Sequence record: MK573636
DNA from: Escherichia phage vB_EcoM_PHB13
Strand: one strand, 5' to 3'
Length of the DNA stretch: 64,000 nucleotides
Shown here: piece by piece, positions 4,987 to 47,554 of the stretch
Layout of the letters: every line of letters begins with the position of its first letter
Position numbering within the stretch: the stretch's first letter is position 1
Notes under the pieces: generated by a model
The model's input: the letters and a program-made list of their open reading frames with translations, nothing else
What the model was told of the DNA's origin: nothing
Database searches by the model: none
Position numbers and translations under genes: made by a program

Positions 4987-5003
4987 TAATGTGTGAGGTG
5001 AAT

Positions 5004-5531
5004 ATGAAATCATTAAACCGTAAGCGTAAAGCACAACGACACAAAGAACTAGCTAAAAAGATTGCTATTGAACTGGTTGAGCGTGAGGATAGCTATTTGT
5101 CTACGGGTCGTTTGTATACATTCCATGCATTGATTGATGGTAAGCCAGTGTTGCATAATCATGATTGTTTGGCACTGTTTCACGAAATCAAACCAATTCA
5201 TCGTGAATGGGATGACAACAAAGCAAAAGGTCAATATTTCCTTACTTGTTCGTGTGGTCATGCTGGATGTGCTGGATATTGGGAACCTGTTACTATCCGT
5301 GAGAAAAATGATACCATTCAATGGGTCGCCCGTACCCGCGATGGTTATGATAAAGGTGCTGATGGTACTGGAGATAACGTAGTTTACTTTAATCGTGATT
5401 GGTATTATATGGCGCGATGTATGATCCTGTTTTATCTTGACTCGATGCCGTATGAATATTTCAGTTTCCAGAATGGGACCGAACTGACAGGGAAGGAATG
5501 GTCTGACTACATTCGAAAAAATTTAAAATAA
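5004..5531 (+). CDS. hypothetical protein (Cys/His-rich: CSCGHAGCAGY)
   Basis: ORF track 4983..5531; start moved to ATG after SD GAGGTGA. Confidence 0.45.
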   Translation: MKSLNRKRKAQRHKELAKKIAIELVEREDSYLSTGRLYTFHALIDGKPVLHNHDCLALFHEIKPIHREWDDNKAKGQYFLTCSCGHAGCAGYWEPVTIREKNDTIQWVARTRDGYDKGADGTGDNVVYFNRDWYYMARCMILFYLDSMPYEYFSFQNGTELTGKEWSDYIRKNLK

Positions 5532-7259: not shown

Positions 7260-7271
7260 GGGGAATATATT

Positions 7272-8096
7272 ATGAAATGGGAAATTGGTAAAACTTACAC
7301 CTGGAAAGACGAAAACGCTAAAACTGAGTTTATTACTAACGGAGAAGGTGTTCTTTCTCCACTTAACAGCGATATTAGTGCAGCTATTGGTGACAAGCCA
7401 TTTACCATCATCGAGATCGAGGGTAACGGTTGGATTGATGCAATAGAGCTAGACGGTGTTTATCATACGGCGAAAACTGCTACAGGAAAAGACATTTGGA
7501 AGTCAACATATTTGTTTAGTCCATTTGATAGAAAATTCTTTCGTGAAGTTGAAGAAGTTCCCCAGAAATGGGAAGTTGGTAAAACTTATACTTGGAAAGA
7601 TATTAAGGCTATGACCGACTTCTGTCATTATGCCGAAAACGTATCTAACCTTAATTATGTTATTGCACGAGCAATAAATTATAGACCTTTTACTGTTAAA
7701 AATGTTCGTCCATGTGGGCAAATTGATGTAATTGAAATTGATGGTAAAGACCATACTCTAATGAGCGCAACCGAAGATAGAGACCATAAAGGAACTAGCT
7801 GGTTTATTGATTCTGATAGAAAATTCTTTCGTGAAGTAGAAGAATTGGAAGTTATAACCACTGATTCTAAGATCGTTGGACAGTTGAAACGTCTGTTTAG
7901 TAGTCGTTACGGCCTGACAATGGTTAAATTTGGCGAAGCAAATGAAGGTAAAACCTTTGAACGTTTCGATGATTTCATTTCGGCACTTGACAAGATGGAT
8001 GAAATCATGCAAGATCGCCAGAAGATTAAAGACCTTCAAGAAGACATTAAACGTCGTGAAGTTGAATTTTTGATTGGTAAAGAGCGAGGATGGTAA
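7272..8096 (+). CDS. hypothetical protein, repeat-domain family with two tandem domain copies (WEIGKTYTWKD ... DRKFFREVEE, twice)
   Basis: ORF track; about 23-nt identical DNA repeat near 7528 and 7812. Confidence 0.6.
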   Translation: MKWEIGKTYTWKDENAKTEFITNGEGVLSPLNSDISAAIGDKPFTIIEIEGNGWIDAIELDGVYHTAKTATGKDIWKSTYLFSPFDRKFFREVEEVPQKWEVGKTYTWKDIKAMTDFCHYAENVSNLNYVIARAINYRPFTVKNVRPCGQIDVIEIDGKDHTLMSATEDRDHKGTSWFIDSDRKFFREVEELEVITTDSKIVGQLKRLFSSRYGLTMVKFGEANEGKTFERFDDFISALDKMDEIMQDRQKIKDLQEDIKRREVEFLIGKERGW

Positions 8097-36677: not shown

Positions 36678-36935
36678 ATGAGTCGAAGTTTTGATTTTCT
36701 GATCGCCAAGTGTCATCGAGAAAAGAAATCGATGGACCTGTTTATGGAGTGTTTGAGGTATGAATATGCGCATCTTCATAAACACAAAATTGATCCGCAA
36801 GTTTCCTACGAAAACATCAAGAAATATGCGAAAGAAGTGATTGACAACGATTGCACCGTGACATATAATGCGTTTATTGATTTATGGGCGTGGGATGTAA
36901 TCTACGCAGAGATGGACAAAGAAGATTTTAATTAA
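36678..36935 (+). CDS. hypothetical protein
   Basis: ORF track, 85 aa. Confidence 0.4.
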   Translation: MSRSFDFLIAKCHREKKSMDLFMECLRYEYAHLHKHKIDPQVSYENIKKYAKEVIDNDCTVTYNAFIDLWAWDVIYAEMDKEDFN

Positions 36936-36949
36936 GTGAGGATTATATT

Positions 36950-39058
36950 ATGAAAATGCATATTGATAATGAAGAAGTATTTGGCAGTGACTTGAGCGGT
37001 GCGGTTGATTTTTCACTGAAAGCAAGTAGCAAGGCTTTTATGGTGCTTTCTAAGAACACTTATCAATATTGTGAGCGTGCTTGCGTCCGTGAGTATTCGT
37101 GCAATGCTACCGACACTCACAAAGAAGCCGGAACCTTAGATCGTCCGTTTGATATTCATTTACCGACTGCAATCGAACCGTATTTTTCTGTGCGTGATTA
37201 TGGTACTGGTATTCCGTCTAAGAAAGAATTAGAACAACTGTTTACGGTTTACTTTGAATCAACAAAAGACCAGACTAATGACTATATCGGGTCTTTTGGT
37301 TTGGGTGCGAAGTCTGCTTATAGCTATACCGACACCTTTACAATCGTAAACTATTACAATGGTCGCGCTTATGGCTTTACGGCATTTGTGCAAAACTCTA
37401 TGCCGAAAATGGTGCAGATTTTCGACGAACCGACCTATGAAGACAATGGTCTGAAAATCACTATTCCGGTGAAAGAAAAAGATATTAAAACATGGCATCG
37501 AGAAGCACAATTTGTACTGCGTCATTTTGGGGAACATAAACCGAATATCAACGCAATCGAAATTAACTATTTCCCTAGCTTTGATAATTATTATGTGTGT
37601 AATGGGCGTGATAACGATTCCTACGTGGTATATGCAATCATGGGTAAGATCCAGTATCCAATCCCGTATGAATATATTCGCGGAACATGGTTAGAAGCTG
37701 TAAACCGCCAGCACCAGACCATTTACATTAATTTTGAGTTGGGTGATCTGGACCTGATGCCATCGCGTGAAGAAGTTCACTTGTCAATTGAGACTAAAGC
37801 GAACATCGAAAAACGTATTGCAGAAATCAATGAAATGATGTTGGAAAAGGTTAAAGAAAAGATCGCCAGCATTGAAACAGAGCGTAAACTTGCTCAATTT
37901 ATGAGCGAGTATTCATCGACTCAACGCAATATTATTGGCAAGATGGGTAAGATCGGACAATGGGATGATCCGGTAGCAATCTATAATAAGTTTGTGAATG
38001 CTGGCAAAGATTCACCCAATGACGTAGAAGGACAGGTGTATACTCTGTATCATACTCGTCACACAATCAGTAAATTGCGCCCTGCTTTCGTTAGCAGTCA
38101 ATACAACATTACGCATTTTGTATGGATGCATAAAGAAGATATTACGTGTCTTATTGATGATACCGATAAACCGAAACTGCGTGCACTGACTCTTAACGGC
38201 ATGGTCCAGGAATACGGCATCAATAAAAAGGTGCTGGTGTTCCGTCAGAACAACGAAAAACATATGGAGACTTTCGAGTACATCAAACAGTATTATGATG
38301 ATTCTGAAATGACCGTGATTAAGGTATCAGAGGCCGATGATCTTCGTGCTAAAGCAATTAAGCCGGAGAAGACCGAGCGTACACAACGTGAATCAACTCC
38401 TAAGCTGCCTAACGTGTATATCATGGAAAAGATTGGTGACAGTTGGCATAAAACCAGCCATCATATGAAAGCGGCAGAGATTCGCGAGTTATCAGGCTTG
38501 CACATGTTCCGCGTGGGTGATGCATTCGAAAGCCGTAGCCGTCAATCGATCTATAATGAAAATACATTACACACGGCGCTTGACTACTTCGGGGTAACAA
38601 AGTATATTATTACCCGTAACGAGACACAAAAATATCTCGTTGACGAACAATTGGAATGTGCGCTAGAATTTGTTCGCGGTAAGCTGGCTGGTCTGGCTAA
38701 GAAGGTTAAGACCAATCATCTGGGGTATGGCGAATATCTGGGTGTGATCACTATGTTGTTTCATGACGATGAACTAGAACGCTGTGTTCCAGAATTTATT
38801 GACAGACTGTACGGTCGTCATTATAATAAAGAGGTTTCCAAGTTACTCCTTCGTACTCGTTGGATTATGGACGAAGAAACTAAAAAGATCTGTGATGAAA
38901 AATTCACGGCAGCAAACGAACGAATTAAAGCAGTTTGTGCGAAGTTTAAAGAGAATAGCCCGTTACTGTATGATATTGTAGATAACTGGTATCGTATTCT
39001 GCATAACGACAAACGCGCACAAGACTTTATGAAACTGGTTAAGAATGTTAAATTTTAA
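36950..39058 (+). CDS. rIIA: rIIA protein (GHKL ATPase-like N-terminus)
   Basis: 702 aa, motif DYGTGIP / GSFGLGAKSAY; synteny 39-rIIA-rIIB. Confidence 0.8.
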   Translation: MKMHIDNEEVFGSDLSGAVDFSLKASSKAFMVLSKNTYQYCERACVREYSCNATDTHKEAGTLDRPFDIHLPTAIEPYFSVRDYGTGIPSKKELEQLFTVYFESTKDQTNDYIGSFGLGAKSAYSYTDTFTIVNYYNGRAYGFTAFVQNSMPKMVQIFDEPTYEDNGLKITIPVKEKDIKTWHREAQFVLRHFGEHKPNINAIEINYFPSFDNYYVCNGRDNDSYVVYAIMGKIQYPIPYEYIRGTWLEAVNRQHQTIYINFELGDLDLMPSREEVHLSIETKANIEKRIAEINEMMLEKVKEKIASIETERKLAQFMSEYSSTQRNIIGKMGKIGQWDDPVAIYNKFVNAGKDSPNDVEGQVYTLYHTRHTISKLRPAFVSSQYNITHFVWMHKEDITCLIDDTDKPKLRALTLNGMVQEYGINKKVLVFRQNNEKHMETFEYIKQYYDDSEMTVIKVSEADDLRAKAIKPEKTERTQRESTPKLPNVYIMEKIGDSWHKTSHHMKAAEIRELSGLHMFRVGDAFESRSRQSIYNENTLHTALDYFGVTKYIITRNETQKYLVDEQLECALEFVRGKLAGLAKKVKTNHLGYGEYLGVITMLFHDDELERCVPEFIDRLYGRHYNKEVSKLLLRTRWIMDEETKKICDEKFTAANERIKAVCAKFKENSPLLYDIVDNWYRILHNDKRAQDFMKLVKNVKF

Positions 39059-39069
39059 GAGGTGATATT

Positions 39070-39201
39070 ATGACTAAACTGACCGCTATCCAGAAAGAAA
39101 CCATCCGTAAACAATACGCTCGCGGCTTGACTAAAGGCGAACTGGCACGAATCTATAATGTATCAGACCGCACAATCCGCAAGGTTGTAGAAGCAAAATA
39201 A
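39070..39201 (+). CDS. small helix-turn-helix protein (43 aa; ...GELARIYNVSDRTIRKV)
   Basis: not in track; SD AGGTGATATT then ATG. Confidence 0.3.
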   Translation: MTKLTAIQKETIRKQYARGLTKGELARIYNVSDRTIRKVVEAK

Positions 39202-39254
39202 TTCTGGTATAATGATGTGAATCGGGCGGCGATAGTCGCCCAACTAATAGAGGA

Positions 39255-40256
39255 ATGAATACTATGACTAAAGCAAAAATCACCGTCTCTGACCGTAACG
39301 TTCAATGCCTGGATTCTGCGAAACAAATCAAACTGGCTAAACAGTGGGGAGAAGGTAAGTTTACTACCCGCGAAGCACTTGCGGCAGCATTTGGGGTATC
39401 TCGTCGTACTGCCTCCCGTGTATTACTGATTCAGAAAGACGCAGTAGCGGAAGGTCGCAAGGCACTAGAAAAACGTAAAGCACGCCGTAAAACAAGTAAA
39501 GGAAAAGGCGGTGAACGCGCAAAAAAGCCCGTGACTACTACCTCAAAAATCGTAGCCATAGCCTCAACTAAGTTTATTACTATTACATGCGGTGACATTG
39601 TTTATACTGCTGATCCATCACATGTTAACTTTAAGGAAGCACTGGAAGCAGTTAAGCAGAATGATTTTATTAAAGCAATTACGCTGATTGACATTAAGAA
39701 AGCGGTTGAAGTATATTATCACGGCGCTTTCCGTATCGAAAATGGTATTGTGTATTATCATAATATTGTTCTTGATAATAATCTGACTCGTCGAGTTGTT
39801 GAGTCTATTAAAGAGAATAAGCCATATACGCACTATCTGAACTTCTTTGAGAAGTGCAAGAAAAACCCTAGCCGTAAGGCGGTAGATCGTCTGTTTGACT
39901 TCTTAGAACACAACGACATTGAGATCGGGGAAGATGGTTGTTTCTATGCATGGAAACGTGTTGATGTTGATTATAAAGATTTCTTTACTCATACGTTTGA
40001 TAATAGCCCAGGGCGCACGGTTAAAATGAAGCGTAAAGACGTTGACCCAGATGATGATCGCACTTGCTCTAATGGCCTCCACGTTGCAGCGAAACACTAT
40101 ATTCCACACTATAGCGGTGGACGAGGCCGAATCATTAAATGCAAAGTTGATCCTCGTCACGTTGTAAGTATTCCGAAAGATTATGCGAATGCCAAAATGC
40201 GCTGTCATCGTTACTATGTGGTTGAAGATGTAACCGAAGGTTTTAGCCATTACTAA
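39255..40256 (+). CDS. rIIB: rIIB protein
   Basis: size and position after rIIA. Confidence 0.7.
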   Translation: MNTMTKAKITVSDRNVQCLDSAKQIKLAKQWGEGKFTTREALAAAFGVSRRTASRVLLIQKDAVAEGRKALEKRKARRKTSKGKGGERAKKPVTTTSKIVAIASTKFITITCGDIVYTADPSHVNFKEALEAVKQNDFIKAITLIDIKKAVEVYYHGAFRIENGIVYYHNIVLDNNLTRRVVESIKENKPYTHYLNFFEKCKKNPSRKAVDRLFDFLEHNDIEIGEDGCFYAWKRVDVDYKDFFTHTFDNSPGRTVKMKRKDVDPDDDRTCSNGLHVAAKHYIPHYSGGRGRIIKCKVDPRHVVSIPKDYANAKMRCHRYYVVEDVTEGFSHY

Positions 40257-40270
40257 CAGAGGAATTAATT

Positions 40271-40597
40271 ATGGTTGATATGAAAGTTACTTGCGAAAGT
40301 GCACATGTTGAAGTTGAAAGTAGCCAATATTCATTGCGTCCGTCCGGTCGCGTTACTGTGACTATGGATGATGTTGATTTGGTTAATAATGTTAGTGTTG
40401 AAGATATCGTTAATGAGTATGATCATAGCGAACTGCTAGACGCAATTCCTGAACATGTTGTGATCCAGCACGTAGTAAGCAATAATGATCCATCGACTTT
40501 CATTAAAGAATACGGCGCTGATGAAATGCTCGATGAAATTGGCGAAAAGATTGTTATTGCATGGCTTGAAAACAACGGTTATACTGTAGAACAATAA
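40271..40597 (+). CDS. hypothetical highly acidic protein (about 23 D/E in 108 aa)
   Basis: ORF track; composition counted by eye. Confidence 0.45.
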   Translation: MVDMKVTCESAHVEVESSQYSLRPSGRVTVTMDDVDLVNNVSVEDIVNEYDHSELLDAIPEHVVIQHVVSNNDPSTFIKEYGADEMLDEIGEKIVIAWLENNGYTVEQ

Positions 40598-40642
40598 TCA
40601 ACATAGGCCGCTTTGCGCGGCCTTTCTTAGAGGGAATACATT

Positions 40643-40936
40643 ATGACGGTCACGGTTATTACCAAATACGACGACGAAAATATGATTTACGGTGACGTGG
40701 TTGTTGTTCACGGTCGTAGCATGAAAGTTACTGGTAATTGTAAAGATGGTGCTATTATTTGTGGTGAATTGGTGAGAACAGTCAATCCTATCACCGACGA
40801 ACAAAAGCGAGTCATTATCAGAAAACTTAAAGACAGTGGATATTGTAACGTCGTGGTGATTCAAGAAAAAATTGAAGTAGGCCACTTATACACAAATCAG
40901 AAAACAATTCCGGTATCAATGGTTAAAGGCGGTTAA
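40643..40936 (+). CDS. hypothetical protein
   Basis: ORF track, 97 aa. Confidence 0.4.
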   Translation: MTVTVITKYDDENMIYGDVVVVHGRSMKVTGNCKDGAIICGELVRTVNPITDEQKRVIIRKLKDSGYCNVVVIQEKIEVGHLYTNQKTIPVSMVKGG

Positions 40937-40938
40937 TA

Positions 40939-41301
40939 ATGCTAGGTCATTCTAAAATAGAAGATTGCTCATTCAGAGCAATGAAAGATGATTTTTCGGT
41001 CCTGTACGCGTCTATCCGAGAGTTGTTTGTAGATTTTAAGCAATTCAGAGAATACAAAGGCGTTAAGATGCGGGAGTGGGTATTCTGGCCTTTCTATATC
41101 ATTACTCTGTTTTCTATGGTATTTTGTTTTGTCGGGATCACTATCGCTAGTTTTGTCACTTGCGTTTTCCTGATTATCAGGTGTATCATGTTTGCTTTGA
41201 TTGCTGCCCCGTTTATTGTTTCAATCCTTCCGTTAAAATGGCTATTGGATTGGGCTGATAAATCTGATAAAGTAAAGAATGTGATTTGTAAGCGTGTATG
41301 A
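40939..41301 (+). CDS. hypothetical integral membrane protein (2-3 TM helices)
   Basis: ORF track; long hydrophobic stretches. Confidence 0.45.
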   Translation: MLGHSKIEDCSFRAMKDDFSVLYASIRELFVDFKQFREYKGVKMREWVFWPFYIITLFSMVFCFVGITIASFVTCVFLIIRCIMFALIAAPFIVSILPLKWLLDWADKSDKVKNVICKRV

Positions 41302-41308
41302 GGTGAAG

Positions 41309-42673
41309 ATGGATAAAATTAGTCAAATTGTAAACACATTTACTTACCGCAGCCTTGAAAGCATTGTACATAATGAAGCTAAGGAATATGCGATCTATTC
41401 TGCCGAGGAACGCGGGATTCCTCAATTAGTGGATGGGCTTAAACCAGTGCAACGCTTTGTTATGGAGTGCGCACTTCAAAAGAGTAAAGGCGACCGTAAG
41501 AAATTCCGTAAGATGGCAGATATTGGATCTGGTGTTGCTGAGTTGGGTTATCACCACGGGGAAACTAATGCCGTAGAAGCCGGATCACTCATGGCGAATA
41601 CATGGAGCAATAATACTCCACTGCTTGACGGTCAAGGTAACTTCGGATCGCGTTTAGTCCAGAAAGCAGGTGCGGCACGTTATATCTTTGCTCGTGTGCA
41701 TGAAAACTTCTTTAAAATCTATAAAGATATGAATTGCGCACCTAAGCACGAAGATCTGGAACACATCCCGCCAGCATTCTACTTGCCAGTTGTGCCAATG
41801 GTATTGGCTAATGGTATTAGTGGTATTGCTACAGGGTATAAAACTGACATTTTACCGCATTCACTGGAAAGCCTTATTGAATGCACAGAGCTAGCACTTG
41901 CCGGAAAACTGGATAAAGAACCTAGTGTTCAATTCCCAAAATTCACGGGTAAAGTTATCCCGCGAGATGATCGCGATGGTGTGATTCTTGAGGGTACATA
42001 TGAACTAAACGGCAAGACTAAACTGACAATATCAGAAGTTCCTTATAAGTTCGACCGTGAAGAATATGTGGCGGTACTGGATGCGCTGGAAGAAAAAGAT
42101 CTGATTGTATCGTATAATGACCGTTGCTCTAAGGACGGATTCAGATTTGAAGTAACACTGAAACGCGATTATTTCAAAAGCGAAGATGAATCCGCTCGAC
42201 ATGAGCAAATCATGAAGGATTTTAAACTAACGCAGTTAGTAGCCCAGAATATCGTGGTAGTTAATGAACGTGGCTTAGTTGAAGTATTCGAGAAAGCGAG
42301 CGATCTGATCCGTCGATTCGTCGAAATCCGATTAGGGTATGTCGATAAACGCATTGAATTGATGCAAGCGGAAACGCTGGAAGCATACAATTATGCAATG
42401 GCTAAAGCCAAATTTATCGACCTTGTAATTAAGGGCGAAATCGAGCTACAGGGAAAGAAAAAGGCCGAGGTAATGCAATCCATCAATGGACATGAAAAAC
42501 TGCGTCCATACGCCGATAAGCTAGTTTCTATGCCATTGTATAGCGTTACTCAAGAAGAGTATGATCGACTGGTCAAAGATGCCGAGAAACATCATAGTGA
42601 ATATGAGTATTGGACAAAGACGACCGCAATGAAGGAATATAAGAAAGATCTTAAAGAACTTAAGAAGGGTTGA
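41309..42673 (+). CDS. 52: DNA topoisomerase II medium subunit gp52 (GyrA-like)
   Basis: strong similarity to T4 gp52 (GLKPVQRFV, LLDGQGNFGSR, RYIFARV); start at ATG after SD GAGGTGA. Confidence 0.9.
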   Translation: MDKISQIVNTFTYRSLESIVHNEAKEYAIYSAEERGIPQLVDGLKPVQRFVMECALQKSKGDRKKFRKMADIGSGVAELGYHHGETNAVEAGSLMANTWSNNTPLLDGQGNFGSRLVQKAGAARYIFARVHENFFKIYKDMNCAPKHEDLEHIPPAFYLPVVPMVLANGISGIATGYKTDILPHSLESLIECTELALAGKLDKEPSVQFPKFTGKVIPRDDRDGVILEGTYELNGKTKLTISEVPYKFDREEYVAVLDALEEKDLIVSYNDRCSKDGFRFEVTLKRDYFKSEDESARHEQIMKDFKLTQLVAQNIVVVNERGLVEVFEKASDLIRRFVEIRLGYVDKRIELMQAETLEAYNYAMAKAKFIDLVIKGEIELQGKKKAEVMQSINGHEKLRPYADKLVSMPLYSVTQEEYDRLVKDAEKHHSEYEYWTKTTAMKEYKKDLKELKKG

Positions 42674-44508: not shown

Positions 44509-45309
44509 ATGAAAAACATTATCGCTGCGATCGTTCTTTCTACTACGGCTTTCGGTGCTAATGCTGCGTCCTTTGATTGCGCTAAAGCTACTACCAAACC
44601 AGAGAAGTTTATTTGTGCTAATGAGTCAATCTCCGCACTGGATTCTAAACTTAATGAAGTATATGTTAAGGCTGTTAAGATTGATCCATCTCTTAAACAA
44701 GAGCAACGCAACTGGAATAAAACTGTTCGTGATACAATGATCAACATCGGGCAAATACAGCCACTGGAGGCTGTATATAACGCTCAAATCCAAAACTTGA
44801 TGAACGTATTACCTAAAGAAGAAACAGCGTCAGAAAGCGATTCAGAGACTTCTGCGAAGGTTGAAGAAGAACAACCGAAACAAGAAGAAAAAGTGGTAGA
44901 GCAACCGAAGAAAGAAGAGAAAATCTATGGATCTATCACTTACCAGTGCATTGCAAAATTTACATGGAAAATCATTGATGGTATTGAGACAGACAGCCGC
45001 AAAGATCCATTGTATGGAAACTCTACTTATGGCAACAAGGGCGGAAAGCTGAAAATGACCATGACCGAAGGTGAATTGTCTTCTTTCGTATATGTTGATG
45101 AGCGCGAAGTGTTTAAATCAAATCTGACACGCAGCAAACAATATAAAAATATGGTTGTTGGTATGAGCAAACCGGATGTAGCAGGATACTTCAACGAGTA
45201 CAAAATGTGGGTAGGGGAAAACGATGAAATCCGCTTTGAAGTCATCGAGAAAGGTCGCATTAGCTATGATTATGGTACTCAATATGTTTGCGAATATAAG
45301 AAGGGTTAA
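44509..45309 (+). CDS. secreted/periplasmic protein with N-terminal signal peptide and DUF1311 (LprI lysozyme-inhibitor-like) domain
   Basis: signal peptide ...AFGANA/AS; motif FDCAKATTKPEKFICANESISALDSKLNEVY...EQRNW. Confidence 0.55.
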   Translation: MKNIIAAIVLSTTAFGANAASFDCAKATTKPEKFICANESISALDSKLNEVYVKAVKIDPSLKQEQRNWNKTVRDTMINIGQIQPLEAVYNAQIQNLMNVLPKEETASESDSETSAKVEEEQPKQEEKVVEQPKKEEKIYGSITYQCIAKFTWKIIDGIETDSRKDPLYGNSTYGNKGGKLKMTMTEGELSSFVYVDEREVFKSNLTRSKQYKNMVVGMSKPDVAGYFNEYKMWVGENDEIRFEVIEKGRISYDYGTQYVCEYKKG

Positions 45310-46193: not shown

Positions 46194-46526
46194 ATGAAAA
46201 ATGTACTGATTGTGTGGGAACTGATTCCAGAAACTACTGAATTATACATGGTACAGGTTGATAATAAAGAATTTGAAATTCTGAAACGCGTCAACTGCAA
46301 ATATATTAACATTGATGACATGACCCCAGAAATGGACTATGTAAACTATGCTCTCATGCAGCCTAGTTGGATTATGGATGAAACTAAAGCCGACGCCGAA
46401 TCGCTGGGTGTACCGGAAGAAGTATTAGCGAAATGGCATCAATTCAAAGTTGAAATAAAAGAGGGCGAACCGTTTATTCCTAGTGGTATGATCGATGCGG
46501 TGATCGTAACAGGTTTTCATCTGTAA
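46194..46526 (+). CDS. hypothetical protein
   Basis: ORF track. Confidence 0.4.
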   Translation: MKNVLIVWELIPETTELYMVQVDNKEFEILKRVNCKYINIDDMTPEMDYVNYALMQPSWIMDETKADAESLGVPEEVLAKWHQFKVEIKEGEPFIPSGMIDAVIVTGFHL

Positions 46527-46979: not shown

Positions 46980-47309
46980 GTGATTATGATCGAGTTTGAA
47001 ATTGACAACTTTCACGAAAAAGCAGAAGACCTAACCAAAATTTTGATTAGTCGAGGTGCATATAATACGAAAGATATTATAAAAGAAGTTAATGTAGCGA
47101 TGGACGCGATCCGAAAGGAATTTAAACATATTTCAGAGATTGGAGAAAATGGTCATCTTGAAGATGTTGAGCTGGTAGCACTGCGACGCTATTACTTCTT
47201 TGTTGATTGCATCATTGATCTATCTAAAAATTATAGTCATTACATGAAAGATATTGTAAAAGATGCACGTAAGCTGGCAGAGAATGTTTACGGGAAGTTT
47301 CCAGAATGA
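46980..47309 (+). CDS. hypothetical protein, paralogue of 46539..46871 (C-terminus ...ENVYGKF)
   Basis: ORF track. Confidence 0.4.
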   Translation: MIMIEFEIDNFHEKAEDLTKILISRGAYNTKDIIKEVNVAMDAIRKEFKHISEIGENGHLEDVELVALRRYYFFVDCIIDLSKNYSHYMKDIVKDARKLAENVYGKFPE

Positions 47310-47554
47310 AATTAGAACAAGCGATTGTATACTTTGAGATGGGCTATGATATTGCTCGTGTAGAGTGGGAAGATGGTGATTTTGTCCGATTGATTAATCT
47401 TCCAGAAACAGCTATTGCACTGGTCAAAGTAGAAAACGGTATACAACGAAATTACGCGTTCTCTGACGAAGACAAACAAGCCGATGACTGGTACGCTACA
47501 TGTTTTCATCATACAGCGTCAAAATGTGATTCAGGGGCTTCTATGCGCCAATAA
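47306..47554 (+). CDS. hypothetical protein, possible DUF2829/Tad2-like small protein
   Basis: N-terminal pattern L-x-QAI-x5-G-x2-IARVEW and C-terminal DKQADDW; motif-level only. Confidence 0.35.
   Translation: MKLEQAIVYFEMGYDIARVEWEDGDFVRLINLPETAIALVKVENGIQRNYAFSDEDKQADDWYATCFHHTASKCDSGASMRQ

Follow-up and report, generated by a model that had tools for sequence, protein, structure and literature searches.

A strongly acidic protein encoded next to rIIB in an RB49-type phage is the long form, with a duplicated module, of a widespread family of early phage proteins that are small and acidic

The window analysed here, i.e., the whole stretch of 64,000 nucleotides from Escherichia phage vB_EcoM_PHB13 (record MK573636), carries a short gene directly downstream of rIIB, whose product an earlier note had put forward as a candidate DNA mimic. 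The 3.8 kb around this gene are 95-99% identical to 58 records of Krischvirus phages, that is, of RB49-type, T4-like phages including RB49, Phi1, JSE, GEC-3S, kaaroe and TB34. The gene order is rIIA, a 43-aa HTH ORF, rIIB, the acidic gene, a 97-aa ORF, a 120-aa membrane ORF and 52. The respective features are as follows.

36841-36869, plus strand: sigma-70 promoter by consensus match only (12/12), upstream of rIIA
36950..39058, plus strand: rIIA
38799-38827, plus strand: sigma-70 promoter by consensus match only (12/12), inside rIIA
39070..39201, plus strand: 43-aa HTH ORF between rIIA and rIIB
39255..40256, plus strand: rIIB (phrog_609 match, E 5e-106)
39688..39717, plus strand: sigma-70-like promoter TTGACA-18-TATATT by consensus match only (11/12), inside rIIB
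40258..40263, plus strand: Shine-Dalgarno-like AGAGGA, read from the sequence, 7 nt before the ATG of the acidic gene
40271..40597, plus strand: CDS of the acidic protein, RB49p272 orthologue (ATG start, 108 aa, stop codon included)
40605..40623, plus strand: hairpin AGGCCGC-TTTGC-GCGGCCT followed by TTCTT (-13.9 kcal/mol, z -2.1)
41294..42673: topoisomerase gene 52, after the 97-aa ORF and the 120-aa membrane ORF

Since the ATG of the acidic gene lies only 14 nt past the rIIB stop codon and no terminator-like site was found between the two genes, they are likely co-transcribed. The GC-rich hairpin 3' of the acidic gene likely serves as a transcript end or stabiliser. Its T-tract is weak, and a terminator is annotated at the equivalent spot in Ec_Makalu_003. 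The promoter matches within rIIA and rIIB may be internal early promoters that feed rIIB and the acidic gene, and we infer that the latter is expressed early in this phage.

The 43-aa HTH ORF matches CENP-B_N (26 bits, above cutoff) as well as phrog_15481 and is conserved in every Krischvirus record inspected. We considered it as a duplicate of the rIIB N-terminus and rejected this, since no similarity between the two is detectable by BLAST. Krischvirus rIIB itself shows weak N-terminal HTH matches (residues 37-57) followed by the very basic linker KRKARRKTSKGKGGERAKK, a combination that is unusual for rIIB, which is annotated only as a membrane-associated lysis inhibitor. An Rfam scan of positions 39000-42000 yielded a sub-threshold S15 leader inside the acidic ORF as its sole match (40340..40432, plus strand; 25.5 bits vs. 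a gathering score of 39.5, E 0.004), which we judged to be due to chance.

The strong acidity of the 108-aa protein, on which the candidacy as a DNA mimic had been based, is borne out together with its place next to rIIB. It contains 23 Asp/Glu (21.3% of all residues) and 5 Lys/Arg residues, which results in a pI of 4.09 and a charge of about -18 at pH 7. Its net negative charge of 0.167 per residue makes it rank first in acidity in the window, for which about 91 non-overlapping ORFs were called; the next ORF has 0.100, and the window mean is 0.012 (sd 0.047). The respective charge densities of T4 Arn (0.098) and T7 Ocr (0.239) lie on either side of that of the acidic protein. Hydrophobic residues make up 37% of the protein, which argues for a folded protein rather than a disordered acidic tail. 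Thus, the protein has the traits of the DNA-mimic class, i.e., small size, a high Asp/Glu content and a pI between 3 and 5. The second most acidic ORF of the window (46194..46526, plus strand) encodes 110 aa with 20 Asp/Glu vs. 9 Lys/Arg residues (pI 4.4) and has no Pfam match.

The acidic gene is found in 58/58 Krischvirus records, where it is always labelled as hypothetical protein (RB49p272), and it is annotated as CDS in all of the records inspected. For the window allele and four divergent Krischvirus alleles, we computed dN/dS for all ten pairs. The values range from 0.13 to 0.22 for 9/10 pairs; the remaining value of 0.38 belongs to the pair that has diverged least, with only 5 substitutions between the two alleles. 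All indels among Krischvirus alleles are in frame. From residue ~45 to the C-terminus the protein is nearly invariant within Krischvirus (dN 0-0.02 vs. dS 0.11-0.42); the N-terminal third is the most variable part (dN 0.14-0.17) and bears the in-frame indels. Given these dN/dS values, the in-frame indels and the consistent CDS annotation, the acidic gene is a real gene under purifying selection. A spurious or decaying ORF without function, for which one could only invoke that no database provides an annotation, is effectively refuted by the same observations and by the presence of the gene in all 58 records and of its relatives in at least 143 protein clusters.

Structure prediction suggests an N-terminal beta-hairpin that is followed by two tandem three-helix modules of ~34 aa each. 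The respective parts of the gene are as follows.

40271..40378, plus strand: residues 1-36, predicted beta-hairpin (strands 10-17 and 26-33)
40379..40486, plus strand: residues 37-72, helical module 1, VEDIVNEYDHSELLDAIPEHVVIQHVVSNN, a copy confined to long-form members
40487..40594, plus strand: residues 73-108, helical module 2, FIKEYGADEMLDEIGEKIVIAWLENNGYTV, conserved family-wide including the W-L-E-x-x-G-Y-T-V end

The two modules are recognisable as an internal repeat, i.e., residues 46-70 align to residues 77-101 with a score of 48, while shuffled sequences reach 18.9 on average (sd 3.8) and none of 2000 scored as high. That is, the insert of ~31 aa which distinguishes the long form is a duplicate of the family module xxIVxEYxxxDLLxxIGExxVIxWLExQGYTV. 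The AlphaFold2 model based on 7 close sequences was unusable (pLDDT 43.8), while 56 sequences resulted in a pLDDT of 82.8 with a pTM of 0.39; tertiary packing and oligomeric state are thus uncertain in the model. A fold search with the predicted structure gave no match, including to Ocr, Arn or any solved DNA mimic, such that the structure provides no functional hint. The most conserved positions are hydrophobic or aromatic ones (I46, Y50, L87, I90, W98, G103, V106), and no fixed acidic pattern is observed. From this conservation, selection seems to maintain a small core that is folded and a surface that is acidic in a general way, which does not demonstrate mimicry.

Next, we studied to which family the protein belongs. 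Neither Pfam nor NCBIfam scans of the protein and its diverse relatives identified a family, and PDB sequence searches with the single protein as well as with the profile returned only noise. Within PHROGs, it matches phrog_14049 over its full length (E 5.2e-66, with residues 1-108 aligned to profile positions 1-108) and links more weakly to phrog_7311, which is also matched by the short forms described below. Both are mere cluster labels with no function attached. An exhaustive profile search against 1.84 billion representatives revealed only 10 relatives; word-indexed profile searches expanded the family to at least 143 clusters of 65-108 aa. No informative name is found among these clusters, and no domain fusions are present among the full-length-profile matches, all of which are small stand-alone proteins. 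Two names that do occur were discarded: "DUF2695" on one relative from a single metagenome record (P0105) is not reproduced by Pfam, and "thioredoxin reductase", assigned to some relatives of 65 aa, is evidently wrong.

Most members are ~72-76 aa long. These short forms (65-91 aa) are found in prophages of Enterobacterales and Vibrio, i.e., in Yersinia, Citrobacter, Escherichia, Enterobacter, Cronobacter, Salmonella, Pantoea, Lelliottia, Providencia, Proteus and Vibrio, while the long form comprises the Krischvirus protein and two metagenomic proteins (P0009, P0012). For 56 members with 25-99% identity, the net negative charge ranges from 0.087 to 0.216 per residue with a mean of 0.168. That is, acidity is kept even where the identity to the window protein drops to 25-45%. 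The acidic gene encodes the long version, with an internal duplication, of a widespread family that has no name and consists of small and acidic early proteins of phages. Literature searches on RB49/Krischvirus anti-restriction, DNA-mimic screens and accessory-gene screens revealed no mention of the gene, and the completed BASEL collection paper includes no Krischvirus.

To place the short forms in their genomic context, we inspected 40 loci (13 from assemblies and 27 IMG/VR contigs), several of which are near-duplicates such that not all are independent. A LexA-type cI repressor gene is located 1.5-8 kb upstream on the same strand in 30/40 loci and never downstream. Most of the other 10 loci are truncated upstream, and three of them (L041, L042, L044) are not lambdoid. 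An N-type antiterminator gene is found 0.4-2.6 kb upstream in 19/40 loci, Kil is encoded 0.56-1.05 kb downstream in 22/40, and RecT, Erf or exonuclease genes follow further downstream. These distances resemble those of lambda, where cI to ral, N to ral and ral to kil span 3.65 kb, 1.15 kb and 0.96 kb, respectively. In lambdoid prophages, the short forms thus take the place that ral has in lambda, in the early leftward operon after cI and N and before kil. In lytic phages the gene is likewise found among early genes, as on a 135-kb contig, in Xuquatrovirus Pondi and on contigs where it opens an operon that adjoins a helicase or primase gene.

Ral alleviates type I restriction and is reported to modulate the methyltransferase rather than to mimic DNA. 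Ral and the family hold the same position and never occur together in the 40 loci, where a jackhmmer search with lambda Ral found no homologue. Furthermore, Ral is basic (8 Asp/Glu vs. 11 Lys/Arg residues) and not homologous to the family; the acidic protein has no Pfam match of any kind. The positional analogy to ral is one of guilt by location.

Some prophage loci showed further peculiarities. One (L027) encodes two diverged family paralogues in a single operon (5001-5231 and 7396-7593), the second of which has 65 aa, matches phrog_7311 (E 2e-21) and keeps only the hairpin and the EVIEWLAEQGY end. In a Yersinia prophage (L005), the early operon with the family member also encodes, two genes further upstream, a pentapeptide-repeat protein of 157 aa (7266-7739); Qnr and MfpA are examples of pentapeptide-repeat proteins known to mimic DNA. 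In E. coli Rac-like prophages, a putative nucleotide-modification gene of the Nmad5 family is found directly downstream of the family member (L002, 8278-8947, split into two ORFs; L003, 8278-8946; also in 18 E. coli genomes).

We also compared the family with characterised DNA mimics. Here, hhalign of the family profile A3 gave a probability of 1.6% over 9 columns against T7 Ocr and of 0.15% against T4 Arn. The profile comparison with T4 DenB.1, encoded by the gene after rIIB in T4, was negative as well. Ocr is not among the PDB sequence-search matches, its elongated helical dimer that mimics bent B-DNA is not seen in the predicted structure, and no sequence or fold relation to ArdA was detected. 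By sequence comparison and predicted fold, the acidic protein lies outside all known DNA-mimic families. For the proposal of an Ocr/Arn-type DNA mimic this means that the general properties hold, i.e., the protein is small and folded with an acidity conserved family-wide, while a sequence or fold relation to Ocr or Arn is not supported.

Whether an anti-restriction function would be of use depends on the state of the phage DNA. RB49 DNA contains neither hmC nor glucosyl-hmC and is cut in vitro by restriction enzymes sensitive to cytosine modification (PMC4041780). Canonical cytosine is also reported for the Krischvirus TB34, and its near-identical sibling SAP is reported to be modified (PMC13390438). 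With unmodified cytosine, DNA-targeting defences should be able to act on RB49, such that an anti-restriction function would be useful. No anti-restriction gene was found in the Krischvirus annotations and papers inspected.

TB34 carries the acidic ORF at 98.1% identity. Its plating is reduced 100-fold by Salmonella BREX, and Ocr or its Sp6 homologue provided in trans fully rescues it (PMC11341690). An EPEC island with type I R-M and DarTG2, the components of which were not separated, lowers TB34 plating by about 10^4-fold (PMC12255303). That TB34 carries the gene and is nevertheless sensitive to both makes a role as broad as that of Ocr doubtful for the protein, and the TB34 results are compatible with other targets.

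Taken together, we tentatively favour, with somewhat less than an even chance, a protein that is made early and acts stoichiometrically as an acidic decoy, blocking a host or defence protein that binds nucleic acids. In detail, a small, folded, non-enzymatic early protein with an entirely acidic surface would attach to the basic surface with which a host or resident-prophage protein contacts nucleic acids, and would thereby block this protein electrostatically. The target would most probably belong to an anti-phage defence system, as its nuclease or sensor, and the duplicated module of the Krischvirus version could provide two binding units. That the protein works by binding another protein, and that this partner takes part in defence, is what we infer from several observations: acidity is conserved in unrelated lytic and temperate phages, catalytic or otherwise known domains are absent, the short forms occupy the ral position, and RB49 DNA is unmodified. 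In addition, there is precedent, as small acidic phage proteins with unrelated folds, i.e., Ocr and T5 Ptr1 and Ptr2, interact with defence proteins (PMC11464382). Like the protein studied here, Ptr1 and Ptr2 are small, highly acidic and uncharacterised; they have no assigned function and trigger PARIS (PMC11464382). A tblastn search of family members against all phage records, T5 included, gave no T5 match. On the other hand, the decoy reading is weakened by the fact that small acidic proteins can also serve the phage's own processes.

The main rival, which we consider rather unlikely, is a host-takeover factor that sequesters a nucleoid or DNA-metabolism protein such as H-NS, HU, RecBCD or MukBEF. 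T7 gp5.5 and gp5.9 as well as T4 Arn (with H-NS) are reported to act by such sequestration. Acidic composition and early-operon context speak for it as they do for the decoy, and the prophage neighbours are kil and recombination genes. Furthermore, the genes of T4 are ordered rIIB, denB.1, denB, ndd.6 to ndd, stp, ac, 52.1, 52, motA.1, motA, arn.4 to arn, asiA, t, such that the syntenic interval from rIIB to 52 holds the host-interaction genes ndd, denB and stp; of these, ndd causes nucleoid disruption and its product binds HU. For RecBCD, however, several carrier prophages already encode GamL or gp5.9-like inhibitors nearby, which makes it a less likely target.

Within the window, an 82-aa ORF in the same variable region as the acidic gene, a few kb downstream of it between gene 52 and holin t (47306..47554, plus strand), is Tad2-like (Thoeris anti-defence 2; PF11195, 28.1 bits vs. 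a cutoff of 25, E 3e-6) and represents a candidate anti-Thoeris gene in Krischvirus. Given this gene and the host-interaction genes of the T4 interval, the wider region is a plausible home of counter-defence or takeover genes. A 266-aa ORF (44509..45309, plus strand) contains an LprI (lysozyme inhibitor) domain (PF07007, 29.6 bits, E 9e-7).

According to a more novel reading, to which we give only a minor chance, the protein would be the founder of an anti-defence family that mimics nucleic acids with a new fold, composed of a beta-hairpin and one to two helix-hairpin-helix-like acidic modules. T4-like Krischvirus phages and lambdoid prophages would share this family, which in the latter would stand in for ral. 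Its target would be either a defence outside the range of Ocr or an R-M family of type I/III, and duplicating the module would fit the protein to a dimeric or longer DNA-binding groove.

[quoted passage not shown] T7 Ocr (gp0.3) and the acidic protein are both small early proteins (117 vs. 108 aa) with a pI of about 4 and a strongly negative surface, both phages have unmodified DNA, and the charge density of the acidic protein lies between those of Arn and Ocr. The ral position in prophages, with ral itself in 0/40 loci, points in the same direction. In contrast to Ocr, however, the acidic protein is less charge-dense and is predicted to form a beta-hairpin with two three-helix modules, and its carrier TB34 shows neither the BREX resistance that Ocr gives nor resistance to the island with type I R-M and DarTG2.

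We see only a slight chance that the protein assists a basic phage protein as its partner or chaperone, e.g., neutralising the HTH and K/R-rich linker of rIIB or the 43-aa HTH protein. It directly adjoins rIIB, the N-terminal part of which is very basic, but relatives occur in prophages, Xuquatrovirus and other phages without rIIA or rIIB nearby, such that the adjacency is specific to the Krischvirus lineage.

Finally, an Arn-type inhibitor of the modification-dependent nuclease McrBC is essentially excluded. Like Arn (92 aa), the protein is small and acidic, and its gene sits in an early part of a T4-type genome that is variable. The suggestion that T4 encodes Arn in the same neighbourhood holds for the general vicinity, with arn about 6.4 kb from rIIB, but not for synteny: arn lies beyond gene 52, between motA and asiA, while the window gene lies between rIIB and 52. 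In addition, the two proteins are not homologous according to the profile comparison. McrBC acts on modified cytosine, such that RB49 DNA without hmC provides no substrate and an Arn-like role is unlikely; the short forms reside in lambdoid-type prophages, the DNA of which is presumably unmodified as well.

Krischvirus phages are used in phage-therapy cocktails. A conserved acidic early protein at the ral position offers a concrete candidate, cheap to follow up, for a new factor in anti-defence or host takeover. If no defence phenotype were observed, it would be an ordinary uncharacterised accessory gene. Knowing its target, on the other hand, would extend the few decoy inhibitors by a new fold and could explain host-range differences among Krischvirus phages.
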